Below are positions 19,236-64,000 of a stretch of DNA of 64,000 nucleotides, piece by piece; position 1 is the stretch's first letter, and every line of letters begins with the position of its first letter. The stretch lies in the sequence record PP952733.1, one strand, 5' to 3'. The notes beneath the pieces are model-generated. The model was not told the DNA's origin. It ran no database searches and saw nothing but the letters and a program-made list of their open reading frames with translations. The stretch comes from Escherichia phage vB_EcoM_H12. A program made the translations under genes and the position numbers.

Positions 19236-19565
19236 TTAATCTGCCAGCCTTAAATTAAAATTAACACCAAATTTTTCGCATACTTCCAACATAAACTCAA
19301 GAGAGACATTACCAGTGAGATTGATTATGTTGGATACGCGAGCCTGAGAGATACCACAAATTTTAGCAACTTGCTCTTGAGAAAGACCTCTGGATTTAAT
19401 CTCTCTCTTAAAACGATGTGCAACGAAGTCTCTCATTTCGTCTACATCCATTGGACAAATATAATTCTCCATTTCAGCCTCTCTGTCAGCCTCCCAATCA
19501 TCTTGTGGAGCATAAGGGTCAAAAACCTCATTCATCTTTCTTCTTCCGTTTTCGTGAAGTGTCAA
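19236..19565 (-). CDS. XRE-family helix-turn-helix protein
   Basis: C-terminal LSQEQVAKICGISQARVSNIINL HTH signature; true start may be the internal Met at ~19535. Confidence 0.45.
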   Translation of the reverse strand: MTLHENGRRKMNEVFDPYAPQDDWEADREAEMENYICPMDVDEMRDFVAHRFKREIKSRGLSQEQVAKICGISQARVSNIINLTGNVSLEFMLEVCEKFGVNFNLRLAD

Positions 19566-24537: not shown

Positions 24538-27267
24538 TTAGTGAACCTCAAGCCAGCTTTTACCAACCTTACCAGTACCTGTAACAAGTGTTTCTTTCTT
24601 AAGACCTAAGTTCTTAGAAGCTTGTCCATAATACCAGTCAGTAACTGCTTTCACTTCTGCCGTCATACTTTCTGGACATTCCCAGCTTGTTTCATCGTGA
24701 TATGCGCAGAGCAAACGAGCACCAATAGCTGGTTGACGACCATTCAACTTCATCAAACCTTCGTCAATCATACGACGACAAGCAAGGTTAATTGCCTCGT
24801 TTTGAATCTGAGCCTCCGAACCCATAAGCAAATAATTCAATAGCTTATGTGGAGATTTACACCATAACCAAGCTCCAGCAACCTTTACAAAACCCCCTTT
24901 AGAGATTGCAGCAGTCTTACCAAACACCTCTTCAAGTGCCTTTTTAGTCGCTTTGTAGTCAGCTTCCAAGTCATCTAGCAGCTTCTTAATTTTAGGCAAA
25001 CGAATAAAGTAAGTCTGTTTAGTCAGTGCACCTTCCTGAGTAGTTGCAGCCTTAATTGTCTTAGCAAACTTCTCATCACCTGCACCGAACAGTAGTGCAT
25101 AGATACCATTCTTAGCTTTCTTACGACCCTTACTAATCTCATGAAGAAGATTCTCATCCTGAGTAGCTCGACAAGTCAAGATATCCTGCTCATCATTCAA
25201 GCTAAAGTAAATACTGTTCAGTGTGTGTGCATCAGTCCCTGAATAGACAACGTAAAGGTCGTTCTCAGAGTCATAGTGAAGGTACTTATCAACCTCTGGG
25301 TTGAGGTACTCATCAAAGTGTTTGCAGTAATAGCGTCCATCTTCTTGACGAATAAACTCAATCTCTTCTTTACCTTGCGTTACCGCTTTGGTGAAGTCTT
25401 TGTCACCCATAAAGTTACAAAGAAGAACTAGCTGGGCTGAGTTCATGTCTACAGAGACAACGTTAGTACCTTCTTCACAAATCCACACTGCCCTCATTGG
25501 TTCCCCATAGACAGCAGCACCAGACGGTACGTTTACAATACCATACTGTGTCATACGTCCAGTTGAAGTACCAAACACCATTGCACCAGCACTAAGGCGA
25601 CCATCTGGACGAATCTGGTTCAACCAACCTTTTTCATCATCCTTTGAGTTCTCAATAGTTCTGCGTCTGTGCATCAAAGTATAGTACTTAGCAATCTTCT
25701 GTCCAAGCTCACCTTCAATCGTATCATAAGATGATTCAGTAAGTTTTGGTGAAGTACGGATTAAGCAAGGCTCAAGCAAATCTGTGTACTTCTTCACAGA
25801 CCAGTTATGTTCAATGTACTGGACACCTTCATGTTCAACATAACTCAAACCACACCGTTCCACCATCTCATCCCACTTAGGATGTTTTGTAATCATCTTT
25901 TTGTTGTCTTTGAAACGACAAACCTTAACAGGACGACCATCTGAGTCTTTCTTGTAGTTCCAGTCATCTGGAATCCAACCAACTGATTTCAAGTAGTCTT
26001 TAACAACTGCTACCTGAGTCATACGAGAAACTTCGAACTCAATTGGTGTATATGGTGCATCAATCAAACCTGTGTAGCGACTTGACTCAAGTTCAAAGTG
26101 GTTAACAACATGACTGTTATAGTACTTCACAGTTTTAACTGTTTTTACTGGCTTCCAGTCTTTACACTTCTTACCAATCTTTGCATTCAACTCATTGCAA
26201 ATTGCACGAGCATCCTTCATTGCTACAAAGCCTTCCTTGTACTCTTCGCCAGTTACAGAGTTGGTTGGTGTATAGCAATTCCGCTTTTCAATGTTAAAAA
26301 TCTTTGTAGTTGGCTTACCAAATGGCTTGATTTCATATGTCTGCATCTCACCGTTACGTACCTGCTGACGATACTTTGTCTTAGGGTACTTGGTAATTCT
26401 CTTCAGTCCATCTGCATGACCGAATGCTTCAACATACTCATTCCAAGCTTTTGCAAATTCTTCTCCAGTGACTTTACCTTTGGTCTTAATAGTTGGAGGA
26501 AGATGTGGTTCAACTTCTGAAGCAAGCTCATTAGTCAACTTGTCAAGTTCCTTTACATGGAACTCCATAAGTTCTTTATCAGCTTTCCAACCATTGATAG
26601 CTTGTTGACTCATCCAGAAAGATGTTTCTTTAGCTCGCATGTAGGTTTCATAAGTATCTACGCCACACTTCTTCAGCTTGAGATATTCATTATCCAGTGC
26701 GCGTTTAGTTTTGGCGTTAATACGAATATCTTCTACAACACGAGTGAAGATTTCTGCATTCCACACACCCCAATGTTCAATCTCTGGTTTACGTACACCA
26801 ACACGAGCACCCCATGCTGCCAAGCCATGAGCGCCTTTATAGCCTTTTGGAGTTGGTCTATCCATCCACTGAACACGAGACTGGATAAGAGAATCCTGAA
26901 AGAAATTACTCCACGGCTTACACTTTGGATTATCAAAGTTCCACAAATCAGGTGCAATGTGATTGAAAACCCACCAGTCATATCCCAGACCATTATGGAT
27001 GCAAAGTCGTTTTGCCTTTAACGCAAACTCAACACCTTCACGCAAGCCACCCTTAATGTACTTGGTATACTTGTGACCGAGGATAGGTTCATCTGTAAAG
27101 ACCCATACAGGCGGCTCTTCATCGTCAGATTTATAGTCTGCGAAAGCCATTACGTGCACTTTAGTGAACTCAAGGAGTAAACCATCAGTTTCTGTATCAC
27201 CAACTAAATGTAAGTTTTTAAAATCTACGTTTTCCATTTTTACTCCCTCTAAAATCATTAACCTCAT
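24538..27267 (-). CDS. family A DNA polymerase with 3'-5' exonuclease domain
   Basis: 909 aa; N-terminal Exo I motif VGDTETDGL; C-terminal polymerase motif C (YHDE). Confidence 0.9.
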   Translation of the reverse strand: MRLMILEGVKMENVDFKNLHLVGDTETDGLLLEFTKVHVMAFADYKSDDEEPPVWVFTDEPILGHKYTKYIKGGLREGVEFALKAKRLCIHNGLGYDWWVFNHIAPDLWNFDNPKCKPWSNFFQDSLIQSRVQWMDRPTPKGYKGAHGLAAWGARVGVRKPEIEHWGVWNAEIFTRVVEDIRINAKTKRALDNEYLKLKKCGVDTYETYMRAKETSFWMSQQAINGWKADKELMEFHVKELDKLTNELASEVEPHLPPTIKTKGKVTGEEFAKAWNEYVEAFGHADGLKRITKYPKTKYRQQVRNGEMQTYEIKPFGKPTTKIFNIEKRNCYTPTNSVTGEEYKEGFVAMKDARAICNELNAKIGKKCKDWKPVKTVKTVKYYNSHVVNHFELESSRYTGLIDAPYTPIEFEVSRMTQVAVVKDYLKSVGWIPDDWNYKKDSDGRPVKVCRFKDNKKMITKHPKWDEMVERCGLSYVEHEGVQYIEHNWSVKKYTDLLEPCLIRTSPKLTESSYDTIEGELGQKIAKYYTLMHRRRTIENSKDDEKGWLNQIRPDGRLSAGAMVFGTSTGRMTQYGIVNVPSGAAVYGEPMRAVWICEEGTNVVSVDMNSAQLVLLCNFMGDKDFTKAVTQGKEEIEFIRQEDGRYYCKHFDEYLNPEVDKYLHYDSENDLYVVYSGTDAHTLNSIYFSLNDEQDILTCRATQDENLLHEISKGRKKAKNGIYALLFGAGDEKFAKTIKAATTQEGALTKQTYFIRLPKIKKLLDDLEADYKATKKALEEVFGKTAAISKGGFVKVAGAWLWCKSPHKLLNYLLMGSEAQIQNEAINLACRRMIDEGLMKLNGRQPAIGARLLCAYHDETSWECPESMTAEVKAVTDWYYGQASKNLGLKKETLVTGTGKVGKSWLEVH

Positions 27268-27494
27268 ACATTACTGCAAAAAATTATAAAAAGCAAGTTG
27301 ACAATGTACTTGACAAGGTGTTAATCTTTGCGAAGTGGGTTTTTACTTAAAAGGTTACTTAACAGTTTAACTATACAGATACTTTAAAACTCTTAAAAGA
27401 TTATTTAATAGCTTTTAAAAAGCTTTAAAGTATAACGTATAGAATACGTTAAGATAAAAGATTAAAACTTAATAGTTACTTAAAAGAGGCTTAC
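27268..27494. promoter_or_regulatory. divergent AT-rich control region
   Basis: Two overlapping TTGACA hexamers (27296-27313); palindromes AGCTTTTTAAAAAGCT and AACGTAT-AGA-ATACGTT. Confidence 0.4.
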
Positions 27495-27917
27495 ATGCAG
27501 AAAATGTTTGTTCACCCAGACATAGCTGACTTTGTTAGGGCTTTGCAGAAGTTGGAAGAACTTGACATTGCTGCTCAACGGGAATATGCTCACCATCACA
27601 GGAGAATGGTTGATATACAACATGAAATAGAGTTGTCTGAAAACTATGAAGATGACTTAAAATGCTCTGTATTTGAGCATATGAAAGATGTTGCTACAGC
27701 GAGACGTAAAGCTAAAGATACAGTTGCTTTACTAGATTCTCTTAAAAAGAGGTTGCAAAGTGGTACAGACCTGTGTAATCTAGCGTCACTGATTAACGAT
27801 GTTGAAACTTCTTGGGATAGACATTACTATCCACGTTCTGAAAAGGCACTTGACTTTTCTTCATCAGAAAACTTAAAATATTCTAGAAAGAAACTTAACC
27901 AACTGAGAGAGAAATAA
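27495..27917 (+). CDS. hypothetical protein
   Basis: 140 aa; first gene after divergent region. Confidence 0.4.
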   Translation: MQKMFVHPDIADFVRALQKLEELDIAAQREYAHHHRRMVDIQHEIELSENYEDDLKCSVFEHMKDVATARRKAKDTVALLDSLKKRLQSGTDLCNLASLINDVETSWDRHYYPRSEKALDFSSSENLKYSRKKLNQLREK

Positions 27918-56260: not shown

Positions 56261-57046
56261 ATGGGTATTGTAAAAATCATCAATGGGGATATCTTCTCAG
56301 CATTTGATAAAGGTAAGTTTGATGTTATTGGTCACGGTTGCAACTGTATGAATTTAATGGGTGCAGGTATCGCTGACAAGATTTCTAAACTTTATCCAAA
56401 AGCATATGAGACCGATACAGAAGTTTATCTGTATGCAGGTGGAATAGGCCACAAACCTTGTGAAAATTTACTAGGGAATTTCTCTGTAGCACGTTTAGAA
56501 CAAGGCCGTATAGCTAACCTTTACACTCAGCTTAAGACTGGTAAAGATGCCCGATACAGTGCTTTAGAGTCATCTTTGAAACAACTTAACAGATACTGTG
56601 AAGTCAATCAGTTGAAGAAAGTTGGGTTACCTATGATTGGTGCAGGTATCGGTGGACTAGACCCTCAAGCCGTCGCAGTTATCATTAATCAGGTGATGAA
56701 GAGTGTAGATGTGTATCTGTATGTCTACGAAGGCGAGATGTACCACAAGTTACGCTCAGGTTGGAAGAACTACTGTGAACCAGAATACTTTGCAGGTGTA
56801 GTAATGTTCACAGATGATACAGTTACCCTCTTCAGACGAAGAAAAGGTAAGATACATCAAAGTAACCCTCCGGTTGAGAAGATGTCTCTAAGTAACGCTC
56901 TAGTTACCCACCTGTCGAAGAGCAATCACAGAATTGCAGTAACATTTGGCAGTGATGCAGACGCTTACATCTATGCAAGAACTGATGAGGATATTGATAC
57001 AGTTTTCTCTTCACCGGAAGTAACCTTCTTAGACGCAAAGAACTAA
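56261..57046 (+). CDS. macro-domain protein (ADP-ribose binding / processing)
   Basis: N-terminal GDI ... DVIGHGCNCMNLMGAGIADKI and later VGLPMIGAGIGGLDPQAV align with macro-domain motifs (compare E. coli YmdB, as recalled). Confidence 0.7.
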   Translation: MGIVKIINGDIFSAFDKGKFDVIGHGCNCMNLMGAGIADKISKLYPKAYETDTEVYLYAGGIGHKPCENLLGNFSVARLEQGRIANLYTQLKTGKDARYSALESSLKQLNRYCEVNQLKKVGLPMIGAGIGGLDPQAVAVIINQVMKSVDVYLYVYEGEMYHKLRSGWKNYCEPEYFAGVVMFTDDTVTLFRRRKGKIHQSNPPVEKMSLSNALVTHLSKSNHRIAVTFGSDADAYIYARTDEDIDTVFSSPEVTFLDAKN

Positions 57047-57109
57047 GAAACTCTGTAGAATATTCACAATAGACTAAGCCTTTCTTATCTGGTAAATTTT
57101 TCAGGTAAG

Positions 57110-57302
57110 GAGGGCTTTTTCATTTTAGGATTGTGCAGGTAGAGTTCTGTATAGAAATCTGTAGAGAAAATTTTGAACTCCAAAGAGAAAATTCATTTTC
57201 AAACTGTGCAGGTAATCTCCAAAGAGCTTTTTCATTTTCAAAACGTGCAGACCCCGCTCAGGTCGGGCAAGAAAAATCATTTTAGAATTGTGCAGGTAGG
57301 TG
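57110..57302. repeat. degenerate direct repeats (4 copies) in ~500 bp non-coding region
   Basis: Four copies of (A/T)TCATTTT(A/C)(A/G)(A/G)A(A/C/T)(T/C)GTGCAG(G/A)(T/C), two preceded by CTCCAAAGAG. Confidence 0.55.
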
Positions 57303-57473
57303 GGTACAGGTGGGGATGTCGCCATTTCTCACAAGGCTACCACATCTGGAAATAAAAGTCAACATAAAAATTTGTAGAGGATTGAAAAATAATTCTTGAT
57401 TGTAGTTCTGTTTTGTGGTAGTCGCGTGCGCCCGTTTCATTACAGTTTTTGCAAAAATATTTTTAAAAATTTT

Positions 57474-57502
57474 CTTGACTCTTTGAACGTGGTTATCTAA
57501 TA
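57474..57502 (+). promoter_or_regulatory. sigma70-like promoter, first unit of small-gene array
   Basis: TTGACT-N17-TAATAT. Confidence 0.55.
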
Positions 57503-57555
57503 TTTGCATCAGACGGGGCGACAAGCTCAACAACCTTAAACTAGGAGATTCAAAA

Positions 57556-57936
57556 ATGGCATATCGTGCACCTAAATTCATCAACAAAGACAACTTTCGC
57601 AACACACTGGAGAAGTCACTTGATGAAAATTTTAAAGGTAACATTATCGTTGTTCACGCATTCAATTTTAAGTATGATGTAAACGGGAATAGAATCAACC
57701 ATTACACGGCAACCATGTTAGATGGTACGCTATCAAGTGAAAAAGCTGTACTGAATGCACTTGCTGGACGCGGTAAAAACCTGATAAAATGTGATAAGAG
57801 ACGTTATCAGGGTGGCGCATATGGTTATGATGATGCTGTTTACCATCTTGAAAATATGGGCTATTCAGTAGAGAAAGCTGGAGCGTCTCAAATAATCGGT
57901 AGTGATGGTTATGTGACAATTTTCAAAATTAACTGA
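57556..57936 (+). CDS. small-gene array: hypothetical protein
   Basis: 126 aa; conserved leader CTAGGAGATTCAAAAATG. Confidence 0.45.
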   Translation: MAYRAPKFINKDNFRNTLEKSLDENFKGNIIVVHAFNFKYDVNGNRINHYTATMLDGTLSSEKAVLNALAGRGKNLIKCDKRRYQGGAYGYDDAVYHLENMGYSVEKAGASQIIGSDGYVTIFKIN

Positions 57937-57940
57937 TAAA

Positions 57941-58024
57941 GTACTTTACAAGGGGCTTATAGTTCGATAAAGTAAGCCCCAGATAAAGAGCTTTATCACT
58001 CAATCCTAAATTGGAGATTCTAAG
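57941..58024 (+). repeat. type-1 intergenic element (hairpin + conserved box + leader)
   Basis: ACTTTACA, hairpin GGGGCTTA/TAAGCCCC (57952-57980), AGATAAAGAGCTTTATCAC box. Confidence 0.55.
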
Positions 58025-58318
58025 ATGGCTATTATCAAAAACGTTGTAATTACTGCAAAAACTCGTGATGATGCTCGCGTTATGGCTAAAAAGTTATGCG
58101 GGAAAGTGATTGACAACGGAAAACAATCTGCTGTAAGATGGGGCGTGAAGACTGATAAACAGTTGAAGCTAAAAAATTCACCAATAAACCTTTTTACATG
58201 TGTAAACACTATCGGGAAGACAAATGTATACACGAAAAAGGCATATATCAGACGCGTAGCCATGACATCACCTATTCGCACAATGAGAAGTCATGCAAAG
58301 CTGAAAATTAATCGTTAA
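58025..58318 (+). CDS. small-gene array: basic hypothetical protein
   Basis: 97 aa; conserved leader. Confidence 0.45.
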   Translation: MAIIKNVVITAKTRDDARVMAKKLCGKVIDNGKQSAVRWGVKTDKQLKLKNSPINLFTCVNTIGKTNVYTKKAYIRRVAMTSPIRTMRSHAKLKINR

Positions 58319-58320
58319 AG

Positions 58321-58404
58321 TACTTTACAGGGGCTTGAAAGCTGATATCTTAAACCCCAGATAAAGAGCTTTACCACTCAATCCTTAAACTAGGAGATTC
58401 AAAA
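58321..58404 (+). repeat. type-1 intergenic element
   Basis: ACTTTACA, imperfect hairpin with AAGCTGATA loop, AGATAAAGAGCTTTACCAC box. Confidence 0.5.
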
Positions 58405-58917
58405 ATGAAAACTGTAGACGCTACCTTTGAAGTTGTAAAAGAAAAATTCACCATTATTTATGAAGCTGTTAATTGCTTTGAAGCAAGCCATAACCTTGAT
58501 AATTGGGAGTTTACAGATGACCATCAAGGCGGCGTGACTATTAAAAACCCCAACTGTCAGCGTAATGATTTTAAATATGCAATCCCTTTACATTACAGCC
58601 TTAAACAGCTTTCAAGTGACTATGCAAAACAAGGCCGGGAAAATCCATCAAAAGAGGCTTACATAAGCTTACAGAAAGAACTAGAAAGAGATTTAGAGGC
58701 TTCAGAATACAACCTTGCCGCGAAAGTTGTCGATGCAAATGGTCAAACAATTTTAGATAGTTTTTATATTGGTTACGCTTTCGATTGGTGCTATAGTGAC
58801 GGCGATGATTTAGAGGATAGACTAAAAGAAGAGGTGAGCAATTCAGACGCAGAATCTGAAGTATTAGAACGCTTGGAAGCATTAAAAGATTCAGTGATGA
58901 ATATCTTTAAGAACTAA
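58405..58917 (+). CDS. small-gene array: acidic hypothetical protein
   Basis: 170 aa; conserved leader. Confidence 0.45.
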   Translation: MKTVDATFEVVKEKFTIIYEAVNCFEASHNLDNWEFTDDHQGGVTIKNPNCQRNDFKYAIPLHYSLKQLSSDYAKQGRENPSKEAYISLQKELERDLEASEYNLAAKVVDANGQTILDSFYIGYAFDWCYSDGDDLEDRLKEEVSNSDAESEVLERLEALKDSVMNIFKN

Positions 58918-58920
58918 ATA

Positions 58921-59004
58921 GATTTCTTTACACGGGGCTATCAAGCTGATAAGATAGCCCCAGATAAAGAGATTTATCAACTATCCTAAACTGGAGATTC
59001 AAAA
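58921..59004 (+). repeat. type-1 intergenic element
   Basis: CTTTACA, hairpin GGGGCTATC/GATAGCCCC with AAGCTGATA loop, AGATAAAGAG box. Confidence 0.55.
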
Positions 59005-59301
59005 ATGAAATTATCAAATAAAGTCCGTGAAAATCTAAGCAAGTTACTCAACAAAATTGATTTTATCGAGACATCAAGGAATAGTCATGATGTTATGGAA
59101 TGGTTACACGGAAAAATCAAAGGCCGTCGTGTAGTGATTTGCTTATGGAATAGTTGCAGGGAATATAAAAAACCTGTATTACAAGTCAATATCTATGATG
59201 ATACTTTTAAAAGCCCTGTAAAGTCTAAAAGTGATTTATTAGAATCCTATGAGATAACTGTAAATGGCAAAGTATCACGTAAAGAGGAAACACCATGTTA
59301 A
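59005..59301 (+). CDS. small-gene array: hypothetical protein
   Basis: 98 aa; conserved leader. Confidence 0.45.
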   Translation: MKLSNKVRENLSKLLNKIDFIETSRNSHDVMEWLHGKIKGRRVVICLWNSCREYKKPVLQVNIYDDTFKSPVKSKSDLLESYEITVNGKVSRKEETPC

Positions 59302-59627
59302 TGACTGGTATCACTGCAATCATTGCCATTTTCGCGCTATATAAGGCATATAAAGCCTATAATCTAGCAAATAAGGCAATCACACAGCAGGTTAGCAATA
59401 GCCTTGTAGAAAGCTTTCTAGGGCGTCTCAGTGATGAGCAAATAAAGCGGTTAGAAATGAGCTTCAGATTCAAAGCGAAAACCTATCAGATAAGTGACAT
59501 CTTCAAGGATGATTTTCAGCTTGTCGATGATTATAACTCTCTGATAAATGCTTTAAATATCAGTGATTTAAAAGATTATCATGCTGTAATAGTTCAAGAA
59601 TTGAGCAAACGAAAAAATTCCTCTTGA
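59295..59627 (+). CDS. small-gene array: membrane-anchored hypothetical protein
   Basis: 110 aa; N-terminal TM helix; coupled to upstream gene. Confidence 0.4.
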   Translation: MLMTGITAIIAIFALYKAYKAYNLANKAITQQVSNSLVESFLGRLSDEQIKRLEMSFRFKAKTYQISDIFKDDFQLVDDYNSLINALNISDLKDYHAVIVQELSKRKNSS

Positions 59628-59652
59628 TTTTGGTTTTTAAAACAAGTAAATT
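59624..59652 (+). promoter_or_regulatory. type-2 promoter
   Basis: TTGATT-N17-TAAATT; then 5' hairpin GGGAGG-GATAA-CCTCCC (59663-59679). Confidence 0.55.
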
Positions 59653-59714
59653 ACTAATCAACGGGAGGGATAACCTCCCTACTAAGTAAAGTCCTTAAAC
59701 TAGGAGATTCAAAA

Positions 59715-59987
59715 ATGTACACTACTAACAACGGTCGCACTTTAAACGTAACCCTGCGCCACTATGTGAACGGTGTAATGCACTTCGAGGATTTACAAGC
59801 TGAACAACATATACTAGATTGGCAACTTGCAGGACTCCAAAAAACTGCTACCGGATACGGGAAAAAGATTCCAACTAGCTGGAAAGTATACTACGAAGGA
59901 CGTTTGCGCAGAATTTATCAAGATGTATGCAGCAATAGCGCATCAAGTTACATCATGGTAAAGGGTAAAAAATTACACTTAGCATAA
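59715..59987 (+). CDS. small-gene array: hypothetical protein
   Basis: 90 aa; conserved leader. Confidence 0.45.
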   Translation: MYTTNNGRTLNVTLRHYVNGVMHFEDLQAEQHILDWQLAGLQKTATGYGKKIPTSWKVYYEGRLRRIYQDVCSNSASSYIMVKGKKLHLA

Positions 59988-60072
59988 AGTACTTTACAAG
60001 GGGCTTATAGTTCGATAAAGTAAGCCCCAGATAAAGAGCTTTATCACTCAATCCTAAATTGGAGATTCTAAA
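59988..60072 (+). repeat. type-1 intergenic element (near-identical to 57941-58024)
   Basis: Same ACTTTACA-hairpin-AGATAAAGAG sequence. Confidence 0.55.
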
Positions 60073-60477
60073 ATGGCTATTAATAATCGTGAGTTATCAA
60101 TCTTAAAAGCACGTTTGACCGTTAACCGGATTAATGTTATTACGTCATCAGCACCGGATGAGACATTGCACAACATTATCGGGAAGATTCAAAGTGTTAT
60201 CTTAGACGTTGAAAACGTAAAAAATTCATTAGCTGACGTTGCAGCAGGTATCACGCTAGACGGTGCACAATATGAAATGGCTGACATGTTAGGCAAATCT
60301 AAGGTAATGAATAAAGAGCTTGATTTAAAAATGTTCCGCTTTGCCGTGAAAGTGTGGCTATCTGTCGAGTATGACGCAAATTTTGCAATCGCTGACTTTT
60401 TCGCAACATGGTTGCAACGTAATTTAACAAATCATGATTTCCGTGATATCTGCGACGTAATTTACGCAGAACTTTAA
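60073..60477 (+). CDS. small-gene array: hypothetical protein
   Basis: 134 aa; conserved leader. Confidence 0.45.
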   Translation: MAINNRELSILKARLTVNRINVITSSAPDETLHNIIGKIQSVILDVENVKNSLADVAAGITLDGAQYEMADMLGKSKVMNKELDLKMFRFAVKVWLSVEYDANFAIADFFATWLQRNLTNHDFRDICDVIYAEL

Positions 60478-60487
60478 AAATTTCTCT

Positions 60488-60516
60488 TGATTTTGGTTTT
60501 TAAAACAAGTAAATTA
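60488..60516 (+). promoter_or_regulatory. type-2 promoter
   Basis: TTGATT-N17-TAAATT plus GGGAGG/CCTCCC 5' hairpin; near-identical to 59611-59714. Confidence 0.55.
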
Positions 60517-60577
60517 CTAATCAACGGGAGGGATAACCTCCCTACTAAGTAAAGTCCTTAAACTAGGAGATTCAAAA

Positions 60578-60778
60578 ATGGCTATTATTAACGGCTTAAA
60601 CATTGAAACTACTCACATCAAAGATATCAAAGTTGGTGATATAGTCCTTTTTCACGGCGTAGAAAAAACTGTTACTTCAAAGGATATCAAAGAGGACTCT
60701 TTCATGGGCCGGTCTCTCTTCGGTGATTCTTATTGCTTAGGTTACCGCGCAGTTTTAAAAGTTGTCAAAAATAACTGA
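60578..60778 (+). CDS. small-gene array: hypothetical protein
   Basis: 66 aa; conserved leader. Confidence 0.4.
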   Translation: MAIINGLNIETTHIKDIKVGDIVLFHGVEKTVTSKDIKEDSFMGRSLFGDSYCLGYRAVLKVVKNN

Positions 60779-60780
60779 TA

Positions 60781-60866
60781 AAGTACTTTACAGGGGGCTT
60801 AAAAGCTGATATCTTAAGCCCCAGATAAAGAGCTTTACCACATTAATCCTAAACTGGAGATTCAAA
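60781..60866 (+). repeat. type-1 intergenic element
   Basis: ACTTTACA, hairpin GGGGCTTAA/TTAAGCCCC with AAGCTGATA loop, AGATAAAGAG box. Confidence 0.55.
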
Positions 60867-61409
60867 ATGAAATGCTTTCACGGTACTACTCAAGAAAACT
60901 TCGTCAACCTGATTAATAACGGTGATAAACCATCAGGCGCATGGAATTGTTCTGATATGGATGGGAATTTCTACGTTTATCCAGAAAATAAAATCTATGT
61001 CGACGATGAGGAAGAAATAATCTCTGAAGGCATTCAACAAGCTTTAGGCAATGCCACTATAACGGCAGCTTTTCAGATGAAAACTCAAAACATTGTTATC
61101 TTGGAACTTGATATCCCAGAGGATGAGTTGAATGATGATTATTCTTGTGATAATATGTCGAGCGTGGCAAGTTTTACAGAGTATTTCGATATAAGCTGGA
61201 TTAAAAAGGTTTATATCACTGAATTTAATGCTATGTTTTCACCTTTTTGTCTTCCTTCACTGGATAACCCGAACTTAAACTATCTTGATGAGTCTCTGGA
61301 ACTTCTCGCTAAAAGTGTTCAACAATCAGACAGTATTCAGGTTTTTTGTGACATCATGGATACACTAACAGGAAACATCATAGAAAGTGATTTGAAGAGC
61401 TTTTTATAA
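60867..61409 (+). CDS. small-gene array: acidic hypothetical protein
   Basis: 180 aa; conserved leader variant. Confidence 0.45.
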   Translation: MKCFHGTTQENFVNLINNGDKPSGAWNCSDMDGNFYVYPENKIYVDDEEEIISEGIQQALGNATITAAFQMKTQNIVILELDIPEDELNDDYSCDNMSSVASFTEYFDISWIKKVYITEFNAMFSPFCLPSLDNPNLNYLDESLELLAKSVQQSDSIQVFCDIMDTLTGNIIESDLKSFL

Positions 61410-61441
61410 AAACCTATGCAATCACCCTATAAACACTGATT

Positions 61442-61462
61442 AGCCCCTCACAGGGGCTTTTA
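61442..61462 (+). terminator. probable intrinsic terminator
   Basis: AGCCCC-TCACA-GGGGCT then TTTT. Confidence 0.45.
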
Positions 61463-61475
61463 GGAGGCTTTAATC

Positions 61476-61709
61476 ATGCTTACAACCATTTACCTCATCC
61501 TTTCTATTTGTAATGGTCATTCATGCGATTTTAAAGGGCTTGAGGAGTTTACAGGGAGTAAAGAAAATGCTATTCAAGTTTGCCAGATAGCAAGACAAGA
61601 CTACCCCGCCAGTGATGATATACAATGCTACTTCAAAACAGAAGATAATGACGGCGTTTATTTTGATAGTGTCGATGGTCAATATGAAATTATCATTGAA
61701 AAAGACTAG
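61476..61709 (+). CDS. small-gene array: hypothetical protein (possible signal peptide)
   Basis: 77 aa; hydrophobic N-terminus; AGGAGG RBS. Confidence 0.4.
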   Translation: MLTTIYLILSICNGHSCDFKGLEEFTGSKENAIQVCQIARQDYPASDDIQCYFKTEDNDGVYFDSVDGQYEIIIEKD

Positions 61710-61735
61710 ACAAGCCTGATAAAAGTCTGTAAATT
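61707..61735 (+). promoter_or_regulatory. type-2 promoter
   Basis: TAGACA-N17-TAAATT then GGGGAGGGAATGACCTTCCCC hairpin. Confidence 0.5.
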
Positions 61736-61800
61736 ACTAATCAACGGGGAGGGAATGACCTTCCCCACTAAATAAAGTCCTTAAACTAGGAGATTCAAAA

Positions 61801-62142
61801 ATGGCTTATGTAACCGTAATTACCGACAAGGCTGGCTCATCTTGGTCAACTCAAGTAAGCGATAAGATGACACCTATGCAGTGCCTAAAATACTTTGAGC
61901 AGTGGAATAAAGGCGAGGATGTCAGCCCCTTTCAAGTCATGCAGATTATCCATACAGATAACGAAGGGAATAAAACTGTTTTGAATAGTGAGTACTACGC
62001 AACCCGATTTGAAACGAGATGTAAAGCAATGAAGCTCTTGCGTGAGTCTGGCTATTCTCATATTGCCTCACTAATCTGGGATGACCTTCTAAAAAATCAG
62101 CGTATCAGCTATGTAAAACCTGAAAAAATATTCATCAGTTAA
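61801..62142 (+). CDS. small-gene array: hypothetical protein
   Basis: 113 aa; conserved leader. Confidence 0.45.
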   Translation: MAYVTVITDKAGSSWSTQVSDKMTPMQCLKYFEQWNKGEDVSPFQVMQIIHTDNEGNKTVLNSEYYATRFETRCKAMKLLRESGYSHIASLIWDDLLKNQRISYVKPEKIFIS

Positions 62143-62270
62143 TCAATAACTTACAAAAAACTTTTAAAAAAGTGTTGACAATACCCCTTGACATTGGTAA
62201 CTTTGTTCGAGGGGGTTTATCTAAAAGGATTCACTTAAAAGATTCTTTATAGATAAACTTAAAAAATTGC

Positions 62271-62299
62271 TTGCAAAGACAAATCAAATCAAGTAAATT
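62271..62299 (+). promoter_or_regulatory. type-2 promoter
   Basis: TTGCAA-N17-TAAATT then GGGGGA-TGACC-TCCCCC hairpin. Confidence 0.55.
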
Positions 62300-62360
62300 A
62301 CTAATCAACGGGGGATGACCTCCCCCACTAAATAAAGTCCTTAAACTAGGAGATTCTAAA

Positions 62361-62891
62361 ATGAACAAGTTTAAAGCTATCAATTACATCCGCTCAAATA
62401 GTGTTATGTCAAAACCTGTTAAAGATACCTACGAATTTCGTTGCAATGGTGTACACTTTGCAACAATCACCAAATCAGAAAACGGAGCTTATTACATTCA
62501 TCGCCGTAATGTTGCAACCGTTGTTGTCTCTCACTTTATGCAAGCTGTCGCGGAACTTCTCCCGATGTTTTTAGGGCTTTACTTGGATGAGTGTAAAAAC
62601 GTTCACAATCACGTTAAAAACCTTTTAAATAGCTATAAAATGGCTTATGAACGTTCTATCAAGTCATTGAACAAGTTTTACAACGCACCTGAAAATACTG
62701 TATCAATAGCTTATGACGTAAGCGGTGAAATGGTAAACTTATCCAATGTGGAAGAAATCAAGCTGCATGATTTACGCCCTAGCGGTGACTCTAAGACTCT
62801 CGGTGAAGGTTTAACGTTCAATATCAAGAACTTAGAGAAAACTTTAAAAGATATTGAAAAAGATATTGACGAGACAACCAAAAATCTGTAA
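62361..62891 (+). CDS. small-gene array: hypothetical protein
   Basis: 176 aa; conserved leader. Confidence 0.45.
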   Translation: MNKFKAINYIRSNSVMSKPVKDTYEFRCNGVHFATITKSENGAYYIHRRNVATVVVSHFMQAVAELLPMFLGLYLDECKNVHNHVKNLLNSYKMAYERSIKSLNKFYNAPENTVSIAYDVSGEMVNLSNVEEIKLHDLRPSGDSKTLGEGLTFNIKNLEKTLKDIEKDIDETTKNL

Positions 62892-62894
62892 ATT
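62866..62894 (+). promoter_or_regulatory. type-2 promoter (inside the 3' end of the upstream gene)
   Basis: TTGACG-N17-TAAATT then GGGGAGGGAATGACCTTCCC hairpin. Confidence 0.5.
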
Positions 62895-62956
62895 GTCAAT
62901 CAACGGGGAGGGAATGACCTTCCCACTAAGTAAAGTCCTAAACTGGAGTTATCAAG

Positions 62957-63220
62957 ATGGAAAACGTAGAATTAACCGCACTATTGCAGATTGCAACTGA
63001 TAAAGAGGATGTAGCACTGTTCCACCGCATTGAAAGCGATTTGTTCAATGGTGAAATCATCAAAGAGTCTTACGAAGTTGTCGGATTCAAAGACGGTAAA
63101 ACGTTCGGATTCTTTGACCTTGATAAAGGCAACGCGGTTACAAAATATGATGTTTTATCTTGTGAGATTCTTACAAGATACAACGAAAAAAGGCTTGCAA
63201 CATACGCCAACATGCAGTAA
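62957..63220 (+). CDS. small-gene array: hypothetical protein
   Basis: 87 aa; leader variant. Confidence 0.4.
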   Translation: MENVELTALLQIATDKEDVALFHRIESDLFNGEIIKESYEVVGFKDGKTFGFFDLDKGNAVTKYDVLSCEILTRYNEKRLATYANMQ

Positions 63221-63223
63221 ATT
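63195..63223 (+). promoter_or_regulatory. type-2 promoter (inside the 3' end of the upstream gene)
   Basis: TTGCAA-N17-TAAATT then GGGGGA-TGACC-TCCCCC hairpin. Confidence 0.55.
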
Positions 63224-63284
63224 ACTAATCAACGGGGGATGACCTCCCCCACTAAATAAAGTCCTTAAACTAGGAGATTCAAAA

Positions 63285-63533
63285 ATGGCAACTATCCGCG
63301 CAATTGTAAATTCTTATGGCTGCTACACTCTGGACGTTAAATTTGATATTGGTGGAACTGATGAATGCTTTTCATTAGTGAAGACAGTTATCAAGCAAGT
63401 TATCCCAGACTATAACCCTACTGATGACTTCTGGAAAGATGCCGTAAAAGAGGCGTTGAACGATGAATATCATTACCATTATTGGGGTGACTTGATTGTA
63501 TCCCTGTACTACAGCAAACAAGGTTACAACTAA
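63285..63533 (+). CDS. small-gene array: hypothetical protein
   Basis: 82 aa; conserved leader. Confidence 0.45.
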   Translation: MATIRAIVNSYGCYTLDVKFDIGGTDECFSLVKTVIKQVIPDYNPTDDFWKDAVKEALNDEYHYHYWGDLIVSLYYSKQGYN

Positions 63534-63571
63534 TCGACGCAACGGGGCTAAATAGCCCCAGATACCTTTAC

Positions 63572-63595
63572 AGCCCCTTAAATGGGGCTTTTTTA
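63572..63595 (+). terminator. intrinsic terminator closing the small-gene array
   Basis: AGCCCC-TTAAAT-GGGGCT then TTTTTT; extra hairpin GGGGCTAAATAGCCCC just upstream. Confidence 0.55.
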
Positions 63596-63599
63596 CGTC

Positions 63600-64000
63600 T
63601 ATGTAATAGACCCTACACAATCCTTTCCAGAATCTATCTCGTACCTTAAAAGCAATAACTCTATAGCTTACTCTATAGCCCCTTATCAAATCAACTTAAA
63701 TATAAGCCAATAACCCCAGAAAGGGGATGGCCCATTTAAACGCTCTATAAAGCTCTATAACAGCCTTATCAACCTAACTTAATGGATTGCATTAACTCAC
63801 CCTTAAAAGCTCTTTACAGGGCTTTATAGAGGCTTAAAAGAATCTTATAAGGGTGTAAGCTTTATCATCTCGTTAGTTATCTTGTGAATGGTTAAACAAC
63901 CCCTTGATAGTCACTAAAAAGTATGTTATAGGGGCTATAAAGTCACTTTGAAGTAGCTTAAAAGTTACGTAAAAGGTGTTTAAAAGTTACGTAAATGCTA
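63600..64000. repeat. non-coding region with short direct repeats (continues beyond window)
   Basis: Repeated CTCTATA(A)AGC units; TTAAAAGTTACGTAAA twice at 63958-64000; no ORF over 60 aa. Confidence 0.4.

Follow-up and report, generated by a model that had tools for sequence, protein, structure and literature searches.

The interval 57047-57555 of the 64,000-nucleotide stretch analysed here (the window), which comes from a Felix O1-like phage (Felixounavirus, Ounavirinae), is non-coding and carries four co-oriented copies of a bipartite motif, W5-TCATTTY-N6-GTGCAK, that are under strong purifying selection. Judged from its sequence, the interval is best explained as a conserved cis-acting control region of the phage, in which the four repeats would very probably dock a sequence-specific DNA-binding protein. 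The interval lies between the intrinsic terminator t13 (5') and a predicted σ70-type promoter (3'), with the following features.

56261-57046: macro-domain 'phosphatase' gene, the upstream neighbour, at the end of the upstream operon and followed by t13
57076-57126, plus strand: intrinsic terminator t13; hairpin 57076-57117 with a 17-pair stem, T-run 57118-57126
57103-57141, plus strand: repeat unit 1; prefix GGTAAGGAGGGC, W5 TTTTT, core TCATTTTAGGATTGTGCA at 57120-57137 (an exact core match), then GG
57143-57177, plus strand: segment between units 1 and 2, resembling a decayed fifth unit
57178-57214, plus strand: repeat unit 2; prefix CTCCAAAGAG, W5 AAAAT, core TCATTTTCAAACTGTGCA at 57193-57210, then GGTA
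57217-57252, plus strand: repeat unit 3; prefix CTCCAAAGAGC, W5 TTTTT, core TCATTTTCAAAACGTGCA at 57232-57249
57262-57298, plus strand: repeat unit 4; prefix GTCGGGCAAG, W5 AAAAA, core TCATTTTAGAATTGTGCA at 57277-57294, then GGTA
57299-57353: variable mosaic tract after the last repeat, with the lowest conservation in the region (0.685)
57354-57440: conserved AT-rich block, conservation 0.912 over 31 distinct sequences, unique in the window
57421-57434: GC-rich island GTCGCGTGCGCCCG, 12/14 G+C
57453-57473, plus strand: UP-like A/T tract AAAAATATTTTTAAAAATTTT, preceding the -35
57452-57510, plus strand: predicted σ70-type promoter; -35 TTGACT 57475-57480, -10 TAATAT 57498-57503, 17 bp spacing
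57556-57936, plus strand: first downstream gene, start at 57556, RBS AGGAG at 57543-57547; 126 aa, phrog_4495

The repeat array

The four cores start at 57120, 57193, 57232 and 57277 on the plus strand, all within 175 bp, and a separate repeat search returned the same four copies, with spacings of 73, 39 and 45 bp. The putative recognition sequence is bipartite, asymmetric and 18 bp long and is preceded by a 5 bp A- or T-tract (W5), the full unit being approximately 36-40 bp long, with a purine-rich prefix ahead of W5 and the core. Counted from W5, the units start at about 57115, 57188, 57227 and 57272, which agrees with the four repeats of about 26 bp that the initial annotation had placed at about 57114, 57188, 57227 and 57274; the prefix it had seen on two of the copies is there as well (CTCCAAAGAG, at 57178-57187 and 57217-57226). 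The repeats are unique in the genome. The pattern TCATTTTNNNANNGTGCAG matches exactly at the four core positions on the plus strand and its sole other match in the 64 kb has 2 mismatches, such that there are 4 core matches at 0 mismatches in the window and no others at 0-1 mismatches; shuffled sequence gives a mean of 1.15 matches to the core pattern at ≤2 mismatches. In the remaining 27 kb of the genome, for which the close relative D4 was examined, the core motif is likewise absent.

Copy 1 overlaps the terminator, the T-run of which supplies its W5 and TCATTTT. The segment between units 1 and 2 is occupied by a full repeat unit in Kolesnikvirus. In this window it has a palindromic match to the Fis consensus at 57164-57178 and a copy (AATCTGTAGAG, 57156-57166) of a second small motif, AAWYTGTAGAG; the window has just one other exact copy of this motif, at 57369.

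Sequences on either side of the array

At the end of the upstream gene, the 17-pair terminator stem is followed by TTTCATTTTA / TTTCATTTT, which is the hairpin and T-run arrangement of an intrinsic terminator. The sequence is identical to t13 of Felix O1, at -21.8 kcal/mol the most stable terminator listed for that phage (PMC3185647, Table 2), and the terminator is also annotated in phage Barry. Tandem terminators were considered for the array and rejected, there being a stable hairpin in copy 1 alone.

The mosaic tract 3' of the last repeat is of 'type A' (GGTGGGTACAGGTGGGGATGTCGCC...GGCTACCACATCTGG) in the window, and a C-rich 'type B' is found in many relatives. In many relatives this tract has a canonical G-quadruplex motif on its minus strand; the motif is confined to type-B relatives, and a G-quadruplex was rejected for this window. 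The AT-rich block that follows carries the second copy of the small motif (AATTTGTAGAG, 57369-57379) and two back-to-back -35-like boxes, TTGACT at 57357-57362 (minus) and TTGATT at 57396-57401 (plus), with weak -10-like hexamers 17 bp on (TAGCCT, 57339-57334, minus; TAGTCG, 57419-57424, plus). That these boxes are promoters is suggested by their sequence; a consensus scan listed neither. Within the block ATAATTCTTGA is invariant, and an imperfect 15 nt inverted repeat has its left arm in the mosaic tract, at 57330-57344, and its right arm in the block, at 57414-57428. The GC-rich patch described by the initial annotation as unusual for this genome is indeed so, since just 2 loci in the window reach its G+C value.

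The near-consensus promoter predicted at 57475 has its expected start at about 57510. Its combination of TTGACT-17-TAATAT (57475-57503) with the UP-like tract AAAAATATTTTTAAAAATTTT is the sole one in the window and is kept in all of the genera, Kolesnikvirus included, and the earlier reading of a strong promoter at the 3' end is thus borne out as a prediction. This promoter stands at the head of a right-terminal array of small gene cassettes, a terminal block of many small genes with promoters of their own. The product of 57556-57936 has no functional assignment, and in many relatives there are 1-2 extra gene cassettes between the promoter and this gene. The region of the repeat array is where conserved genes give way to hypervariable promoter-gene-terminator cassettes.

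Conservation among related phages

The comparison with related phages that had been proposed as a check found the repeat block in 288 phage records; the loss from close relatives that the initial annotation had named as refuting its reading is thus not seen. Felixounavirus, Mooglevirus, Suspvirus and Kolesnikvirus all have the array in synteny, as does one distant relative, a contig (L053) with 5 units in which the flanking macro-domain protein is just 37% identical. Spacings are 73/39/45 in Felixounavirus, 75/41/45 in Moogle and Susp, and 37/37/39 in Kolesnikvirus; among the relatives the first spacing is 73, 75 or 77 and the second 39 or 41, differences that are not multiples of 3.

Over 31 distinct sequences, the specified core positions are 95.3% identical, compared with 85.5% for codon positions 1+2 and 77.2% for position 3 of the adjacent gene, 83.7% for N6 and 68.5% for the tract after the array. 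The information content is 1.6-2.0 bits per position in TCATTT and GTGCA. These two half-sites are near-invariant over the four genera and the distant relative, with variation in the spacers, in N6 and in the polarity of the A5/T5 flank, and the cores are intact in lineages where the flanking protein is only 37-64% identical. No other non-coding sequence found in the region is as strongly constrained as the array. The fact that W5 alternates between A5 and T5 fits readout of DNA shape, rather than a constraint on RNA or on coding.

The 3' end of the motif varies with the genus of the phage and not with its host. Felixounaviruses infecting Salmonella and those infecting E. coli have GTGCAGG, and Kolesnikviruses, including those that infect Salmonella, have GTGCATAG. 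No similar array was found in E. coli genomes or plasmids (both by blastn) or in GTDB representative genomes. Together, this would indicate that the binding protein is probably encoded by the phage. When GTDB genomes and metagenomes were scanned with the pattern, the matches apart from those in Ounavirinae were chance ones to exact tandem repeats of no relation. Two copies of the motif are also present upstream of a terminase operon in a 10 kb contig (L045) from an unrelated phage.

Coding sequence, RNA, CRISPR and genome terminus

There are overlapping short ORFs across the array, some of which are annotated in GenBank records: 57125-57325 (minus), 57133-57285 (plus) and 57282-57644 (minus). 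Their reading frames are not conserved. Every candidate ORF contains indels, of 2 and 4 nt, that differ from genus to genus, and these changes of spacing break every annotated frame, so that the earlier dismissal of the short ORFs as genes is upheld. Micro-ORFs within the repeats (ATT/ATG start, TGC-AGG-stop) are present here, are not kept in Moogle or Kolesnikvirus, and were rejected. It might still be proposed that the array is a functionless remnant, either a decaying tandem duplication of the terminator tail, as the overlap of copy 1 with the T-run could suggest, or a set of real short ORFs, given the hypothetical proteins annotated across the region in several records. The intact cores beside such a divergent protein, the conservation of the specified positions above that of codon positions 1+2 in the neighbouring gene, the broken frames, and the annotated ORFs, which differ in strand and extent from record to record, make this highly improbable.

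A function of the repeats at the RNA level, such as that of a sponge for a protein or an sRNA, is also very unlikely; the RNA would come from read-through of the terminator or from a weak leftward promoter at 57362-57334. The minus-strand pair TTGACT-17-TAGCCT does point into the array and the plus-strand fold has a z of -1.95, but the latter is due mainly to the terminator hairpin, the minus-strand fold (z = +0.38) is no better than shuffles, and the -10-like hexamer is not kept in type-B lineages (TAAGAG). There are no Rfam matches at E ≤ 1, nothing was found by a tRNA scan, and compensatory changes are seen in 0/21 predicted pairs of the consensus fold; the alternation of A5 and T5 is a further point against an RNA element. 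On these grounds a structured RNA was rejected.

Short direct repeats split by short non-identical spacers recall CRISPR arrays. Here, unlike in CRISPR, the four units are degenerate outside the half-sites (just 68-82% identical over 28-34 nt), the 'spacers' are of 13-55 nt and are kept between relatives, and there is no leader and no cas-like annotation in the related genome. That each unit might be a promoter was likewise rejected, since the units lack a conserved -10, other genes are not preceded by the motif, and a spacing of 39-45 bp is too tight for RNA polymerase.

That the array is a genome terminus or a packaging signal (pac, or repeats associated with a DTR) might be suspected because phage BoyaciRG1 has identical 1,232 bp ends spanning the region and several metagenome contigs end 300-415 bp past the macro-domain gene. 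The DTRs of D4 (581 bp) and Ro111lw (613 bp), however, are at the ends of their records, approximately 6.7-7.3 kb downstream of the array, and agree with the sizes of 581, 613 and 608 bp from PhageTerm and Bal31 (PMC8303462, PMC6454146, PMC4837284); the end of the window (64000) aligns to the base just before the 581 bp DTR of D4. The contig ends are scattered, and include an adapter and a chimera, and the BoyaciRG1 ends and a rearranged EAP4 record both look like assembly overlap. Location of the DTRs refutes a terminus at the array, leaving just a distant accessory role in packaging, and the chance that the repeats serve in this way is extremely small.

The array as a probable protein-binding site

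A cluster at a single locus, in one orientation, with near-invariant half-sites and variable spacers and N6, behaves as a set of binding sites would. In 57000-57600 there are 0 DnaA boxes at ≤1 mismatch and 0 exact IHF sites, there are zero matches in the region to the CRP, marbox and Chi consensi, and the sole exact match to the Fis consensus is the palindromic site at 57164, between copies 1 and 2 and outside the cores. The cores bear some likeness to the MarA/Rob marbox (GCAC...AAA), to OmpR sites and to P1 RepA iterons, which was ruled out by spacing or by the invariant positions. The neighbouring proteins have zero matches to DNA-binding, Rep, HTH or initiator proteins, and no published description of the array was found in the literature searched on the origin, iterons or transcriptome of Felix O1-like phages.

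The array would act as double-stranded DNA, on which several molecules of one protein, each contacting two successive major grooves (TCATTT and GTGCA are approximately 12.5 bp apart), would build a nucleoprotein complex, with the strong upstream terminator keeping transcribing RNA polymerase off it. The initial annotation preferred protein-binding iterons, of a replication origin or a transcription-factor array, to CRISPR. Site-like behaviour and the rejection of CRISPR support that preference; the origin of replication that it offered as one form is no more than plausible, and a transcription-factor array is about as likely.

A possible replication origin

The role preferred here, put forward tentatively, is that the array provides a phage replication origin with its recognition (iteron) module. 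The conserved AT-rich block beside it, with its back-to-back promoter-like elements, may aid opening or priming, as may the strong early promoter approximately 200 bp downstream. Such an origin would be akin to those of lambda, T7 and T4, which are activated by transcription. Origins used by T7-type replisomes depend on promoters, and the replisome of these phages is T7-like, with a family A polymerase, a gp4-like primase-helicase, an exonuclease and a ligase (related genome D4; PMC3185647). The context is origin-like in that t13 insulates the array and in that the array is followed by the AT-rich block, which is 91% conserved, and by the one promoter in the window with an UP element.

Iteron systems include lambda ori with its four O-protein sites, the Rep iterons of P1, F and R6K, and the iterons of T4 oriE. 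In common with these, where there are 3-5 direct co-oriented copies of one asymmetric sequence of approximately 18-20 bp with two conserved half-sites, the array has four exact cores at one locus, beside AT-rich DNA and promoters, and its copy number varies slightly. Its spacing is different, 37-45 and 73-77 bp across the relatives rather than about 21-22 bp or contiguous. There is also no overlapping or adjoining initiator gene, as the upstream gene encodes the macro-domain 'phosphatase' and the downstream proteins have no assigned function, and no initiator is annotated in D4.

The GC-skew analysis that the initial annotation had recommended goes against an origin. From +0.13 upstream, the skew drops to +0.07, +0.04 and -0.04 downstream, rather than rising, with no switch or origin-type inflection at 57 kb. 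The minimum of cumulative skew is at approximately 27-28 kb, where gene orientation confounds it, and the least stable DNA of the window is found with it at 27.28-27.48 kb, in the divergent intergenic region on the polymerase/primase side. At the array locus the best 30-50 bp stretches (57350, 57453) are in the top 0.2-0.4% for instability and the best 100-200 bp stretches at about 5%. The skew, the least stable DNA at 27.3 kb, and the lack of DnaA boxes and of an adjacent initiator all argue against an origin here. No mapped origin for the Ounavirinae was found in the literature searched.

Other possible roles for the array

An alternative that is about as likely as the origin, and like it no more than possible, is that the four sites bind a phage protein governing the boundary where the rII-to-macro-domain operon ends and the right-terminal early cassettes begin. 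By analogy with the stoperators of mycobacteriophage L5, this protein could act as an orientation-dependent roadblock; or else the array could have an architectural part to play from upstream, switching the promoter at 57475 and the weak back-to-back pair on or off as the temporal programme proceeds. Stoperators are asymmetric repressor sites co-oriented with transcription, approximately 30 of which are spread throughout the genome of that temperate phage; the array sites are similarly asymmetric, intergenic, downstream of an operon and all in the direction of transcription, but they number four, at one locus, in a virulent phage. The position of the array, with the strongest terminator on one side and the window's sole UP-element promoter on the other, at the change from conserved genes to hypervariable cassettes, would suit regulation. 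The phage encodes an XRE-type HTH protein (19236-19565), and the temporal regulation of Felix O1 is unexplained, no polymerase-modifying factors having been recognised (PMC3185647). On the other side, the cores are 233-390 bp upstream of the expected start, which is too far for a classical operator or activator, and inspection of the sequence revealed no evident σ54-type promoter to justify an enhancer. Furthermore, none of the dozen other early-type promoters downstream has the motif, nor does any other part of the genome, and the boundary is already insulated by a strong intrinsic terminator.

A checkpoint for DNA entry, or a polar barrier, analogous to the injection stop signal (iss) of T5, seems improbable. 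Here the untranslated, repeat-rich region would delimit host-takeover genes that act first. The last repeat is 6.7 kb upstream of the right DTR, approximately 8% of the genome from the end (D4, Ro111lw), and it bounds a terminal block of many small early genes, with their own promoters, transcribed towards that end. The T5 iss is likewise a large untranslated region filled with repeats, 7.9% from the left end, but its defining features are eight DnaA boxes and large palindromes, and it is contained in a 10 kb terminal repeat (Davison, bioRxiv 10.1101/866236). At the present locus there are no such boxes, the only palindrome is the one 15 nt imperfect inverted repeat, and the terminal repeat is of approximately 0.6 kb, not 10 kb, and 6.7 kb away. 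The distance to the end is also not constant, being about 4.4 kb in Felix O1 (t13 to t23), or 5-6% of the genome. To our knowledge there is no evidence of two-step DNA transfer in Felix O1-like phages.

Centromere repeats of F sopC and the R sites of lambda cosB have a periodicity of approximately 35-50 bp. The array, at approximately 37-45 bp with one putative protein-binding core per unit, is comparable; however, the sopC cores are inverted repeats and cosB adjoins a cleavage site, whereas this phage is lytic, with its terminus 6.7 kb off. The array, the mosaic G/C-skewed tract and the block of back-to-back promoter-like elements might together represent an undescribed type of control module, with neither an adjacent initiator gene nor host-factor boxes. 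In one form, widely spaced (37-45 bp) bipartite iterons would place a phage protein beside a transcript-primed opening site; in the other, the module would be a polar checkpoint splitting the terminal 8% or so, a 'host-takeover' block, from the rest in a T5-like two-step programme, in a myovirus subfamily that is not related to T5. Even with the two forms taken jointly this is unlikely.

Implications for Felix O1-like phages

Among the classic typing phages of Salmonella are Felix O1 and its relatives, which now see wide use as candidates for biocontrol and therapy. Being highly constrained, unique in the genome, and common to four genera and a distant relative, the array provides a concrete and cheap experimental handle on the phage protein that probably binds it and on a complex that may serve replication. 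Spurious ORFs are annotated over the array in many GenBank records. As the boundary is a natural site of cassette gain and loss, it is a likely safe, or unsafe, insertion site for the engineering of these phages.

The repeat array and its setting

The four repeats that the initial annotation placed in the non-coding region at 57047-57555 are real, with exact copies of TCATTTTNNNANNGTGCAG at 57120, 57193, 57232, and 57277 on the plus strand. There is no other match at 0–1 mismatches in the 64 kb window, and none in the 27 kb of genome that lie beyond it, as examined in the close relative D4. Two copies carry the CTCCAAAGAG prefix, as had been stated. The true repeat unit is about 36–40 bp, made up of a purine-rich prefix, a 5 bp A- or T-tract (W5), and the 18 bp core TCATTTY-N6-GTGCAK. 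What looks like a decayed unit lies inside the 73 bp gap between copies 1 and 2, where Kolesnikvirus has a full copy. The GC-rich island (12/14 G+C, a value seen at no more than two loci of the window) and the promoter (TTGACT-17-TAATAT, 57475-57503, with an A/T tract ahead of it and unique in the window) are also as originally described.

Features of the region
56261-57046, plus strand: macro-domain 'phosphatase' gene (261 aa, phrog_335), upstream of the interval
T-run overlapped by repeat copy 1: intrinsic terminator with a 17-pair hairpin
57299-57353: mosaic tract after copy 4, the least conserved part (68.5% over 31 distinct sequences)
57354-57440: conserved block (91%), containing the GC-rich island
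57357-57362, minus strand: -35-like box TTGACT, back-to-back with the next
57396-57401, plus strand: -35-like box TTGATT
57452-57510, plus strand: strong predicted promoter, heading a 6.5 kb run of small genes
57556-57936, plus strand: downstream gene, function unassigned (126 aa)

The terminator overlapping copy 1 is t13 of Felix O1, the most stable in the published list for that phage (PMC3185647). The Felix O1 genome paper, which lists t13 and, among repeats, only exact ones of at least 24 bp, contains no description of the array (PMC3185647), nor do the accessible later genome papers. The array would be a newly recognised, well-delimited case of a known class, that of repeated protein-binding cis-elements.

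Conservation in related phages

The interval and its flanks match 287–288 phage records, nearly all Ounavirinae (Felixounavirus, Mooglevirus, Suspvirus, and Kolesnikvirus), with a top identity of ~95–97%. Gene order around the interval is identical in all four genera and is also kept in L053, a distant 88 kb metagenomic phage. There the repeats come after genes for polynucleotide kinase, methyltransferase, and the macro-domain protein, the last with an identity of only 37%. The block is retained across the 54 loci compared, which represent 40 distinct arrays of 3–5 copies, with copy number, orientation, and spacing maintained.

Core spacing by group
Felixounavirus: 73 / 39 / 45 bp
Moogle / Susp: 75 / 41 / 45 bp
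ESh22: 77 / 39 / 45 bp
finno / Si3 type: 75 / 45 bp
Kolesnikvirus: 37 / 37 / 39 bp

Identity to the window over 31 distinct sequences is 95.3% at the specified core positions, 93.5% in W5, and 83.7% in N6; in the macro-domain gene it is 85.5% at codon positions 1+2 and 77.2% at codon position 3.

In L053 (600-760, locus minus strand) another four-repeat family, GTTAATGAGTTGTTAAAA on the locus plus strand, comes after the array; it sits in very AT-rich DNA and has no counterpart in Felixounavirus.

Nature of the array

The array is, with good confidence, a protein-binding DNA element. In a position matrix built from 114 distinct units the half-sites TCATTT and GTGCA, with centres ~12.5 bp apart, are near-invariant (1.6–2.0 bits per position), N6 between them is variable, and the upstream tract is constrained to A/T only, flipping between A5 and T5; the cores of L053 are still intact although the surrounding DNA can no longer be aligned. 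Because of these features, the pattern indicates double-stranded DNA that would be recognised sequence-specifically by a protein touching two successive major grooves.

Coding constraint is ruled out, since the spacing shifts by +2 and +4 nt between genera and so disrupts every candidate frame. RNA structure is likewise ruled out: Rfam gives no match, none of the predicted pairs shows a compensatory change, and folding of the minus strand is no better than that of shuffled sequences.

The binder is more likely to be encoded by the phage than by the host, since the 3' extension of the motif tracks phage genus and not host, being GTGCAGG in Felixounavirus, Mooglevirus, and Suspvirus and GTGCATAG in Kolesnikvirus, including isolates from Salmonella, Hafnia, and Cronobacter; since no related array was found in E. 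coli genomes, plasmids, or GTDB representative genomes; and since the region has no match to the DnaA, IHF, CRP, marbox, or Chi consensus. There is one palindromic Fis-consensus match at 57164, between copies 1 and 2. The flanking proteins scanned have no recognisable DNA-binding domain. An XRE-type (Cro/C1-type HTH_3) protein of ~100 aa, encoded on the minus strand at 19236-19565 within the replication-gene block, is the only clear sequence-specific DNA binder among the few proteins scanned.

Possible functions

The initial annotation had preferred iterons, at an origin or in a transcription-factor array. The array does resemble the iterons of replication origins in that its sites are asymmetric, share one orientation, are strongly conserved, and cluster at one locus; its spacing, however, is unlike that of classical iterons. 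Origins of T7-like replisomes depend on promoters. A strong terminator shields the array, which adjoins AT-rich DNA and promoters, and the replisome of Felix O1-like phages is T7-like (PMC3185647). No mapped origin for the Ounavirinae was found in the literature searched. The GC-skew analysis that had been proposed as a check gave no origin-type inflection at 57 kb; the cumulative minimum and the least stable DNA of the window are both at 27.3 kb. The array region has no host-factor boxes and no adjoining initiator gene. An origin at the array thus gains no support from these independent indicators; set against its iteron-like appearance, they leave that function, though the preferred one, less likely than not. 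An alternative candidate origin, on sequence features, is 27240-27495, the least stable and most AT-rich DNA of the window. This intergenic region separates the minus-strand DNA polymerase gene (24538-27267) from divergently oriented plus-strand genes and contains a 27 nt near-palindrome (27379-27433) and CTTAAAAG repeats.

The position of the array, where the conserved operon gives way to the early gene cassettes, would suit a transcriptional insulator or regulator, a close rival that is nearly as likely as an origin; against it, the cores lie 233–390 bp from the expected transcription start and the motif is missing from all other promoters. A DNA-entry checkpoint like that of phage T5 would be an interesting role but is improbable. 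In several phages the array lies at ~8% of the genome from the end, a position shared with the T5 injection stop signal (iss); DnaA boxes define the iss region, however, and the array has none.

Other elements of the control region

Within the genus, the tract that follows copy 4 is a mosaic, as seen in the window and at loci L005 (1700-1760), L028, L067, and others. That of the window is 'type A', G-rich on the plus strand. In many relatives, including other Felixounaviruses, its place is taken by a C-rich 'type B', of which 18 distinct variants carry a canonical G-quadruplex motif on the minus strand; the whole window has no such motif. In the conserved block that follows, the two back-to-back -35-like boxes are each paired with a weak -10-like hexamer at a distance of 17 bp, and they may be weak promoters or further binding sites. 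They are flanked by an inverted repeat, CACAAGGCTACCACA / TGTGGTAGTCGCGTG (arms 57330-57344 and 57414-57428), which may be a further binding site and not a -10 element, because both arms read TGTGGTAGTCG in contig L108. The window's only two exact copies of AAWYTGTAGAG, at 57156-57166 and 57369-57379, are conserved in relatives, with degenerate copies at 57049-57059 and 57143-57152.

GATC does not occur on either strand of the 64 kb window, which thus avoids the Dam/MboI/DpnII site completely.

Right-terminal cassettes and the genome end

The region 57500-64000 consists of small genes in a row, each behind a repeated element of ~75–110 bp consisting of a promoter-like TTTACA-17-TAAAGT that overlaps a GGGGCTT...AAGCCCC hairpin, followed by TAAACTAGGAGATTCAAAAATG (promoter/hairpin/RBS). 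Whole cassettes are gained or lost between close relatives. One example is a Felix01p030-like gene that Shy, Barry, and Z31 carry as an insertion downstream of the 57475 promoter.

The records of the related phages D4 and Ro111lw have identical sequences of 581 bp and 613 bp, respectively, at both ends, in agreement with terminal repeats of 581, 613, and 608 bp determined by PhageTerm or Bal31 (PMC8303462, PMC6454146, PMC4837284). When the window is aligned with D4, base 64000 falls on the last base before the right 581 bp direct terminal repeat (DTR) of D4, so that the window appears to end at the boundary between unique sequence and DTR. The array therefore lies ~6.7 kb inside the right end and is ruled out as a genome end itself.

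Erwinia phage BoyaciRG1 (OR125561.1) has identical 1,232 bp ends running from the middle of the macro-domain gene across the array, and the EAP4 record (OR185440.1) is rearranged there; both are probably assembly overlaps and not true terminal repeats. Several metagenome contigs break within 300–415 bp past the macro-domain gene. Of two IMG/VR contigs from metagenome 3300045988 (L021, L022), one ends in the Nextera adapter CTGTCTCTTATACACATCT inside the C-rich tract and the other turns chimeric directly after repeat copy 3. The record of Erwinia phage Fifi318 (PQ051114.1) is stated to open at a PhageTerm terminus, yet starts inside the tRNA/terminase region; the counterpart of the Felixounavirus DTR region is not the record start but a 1.4 kb convergent non-coding gap (75,766-77,174), and the stated start may differ from the physical end.
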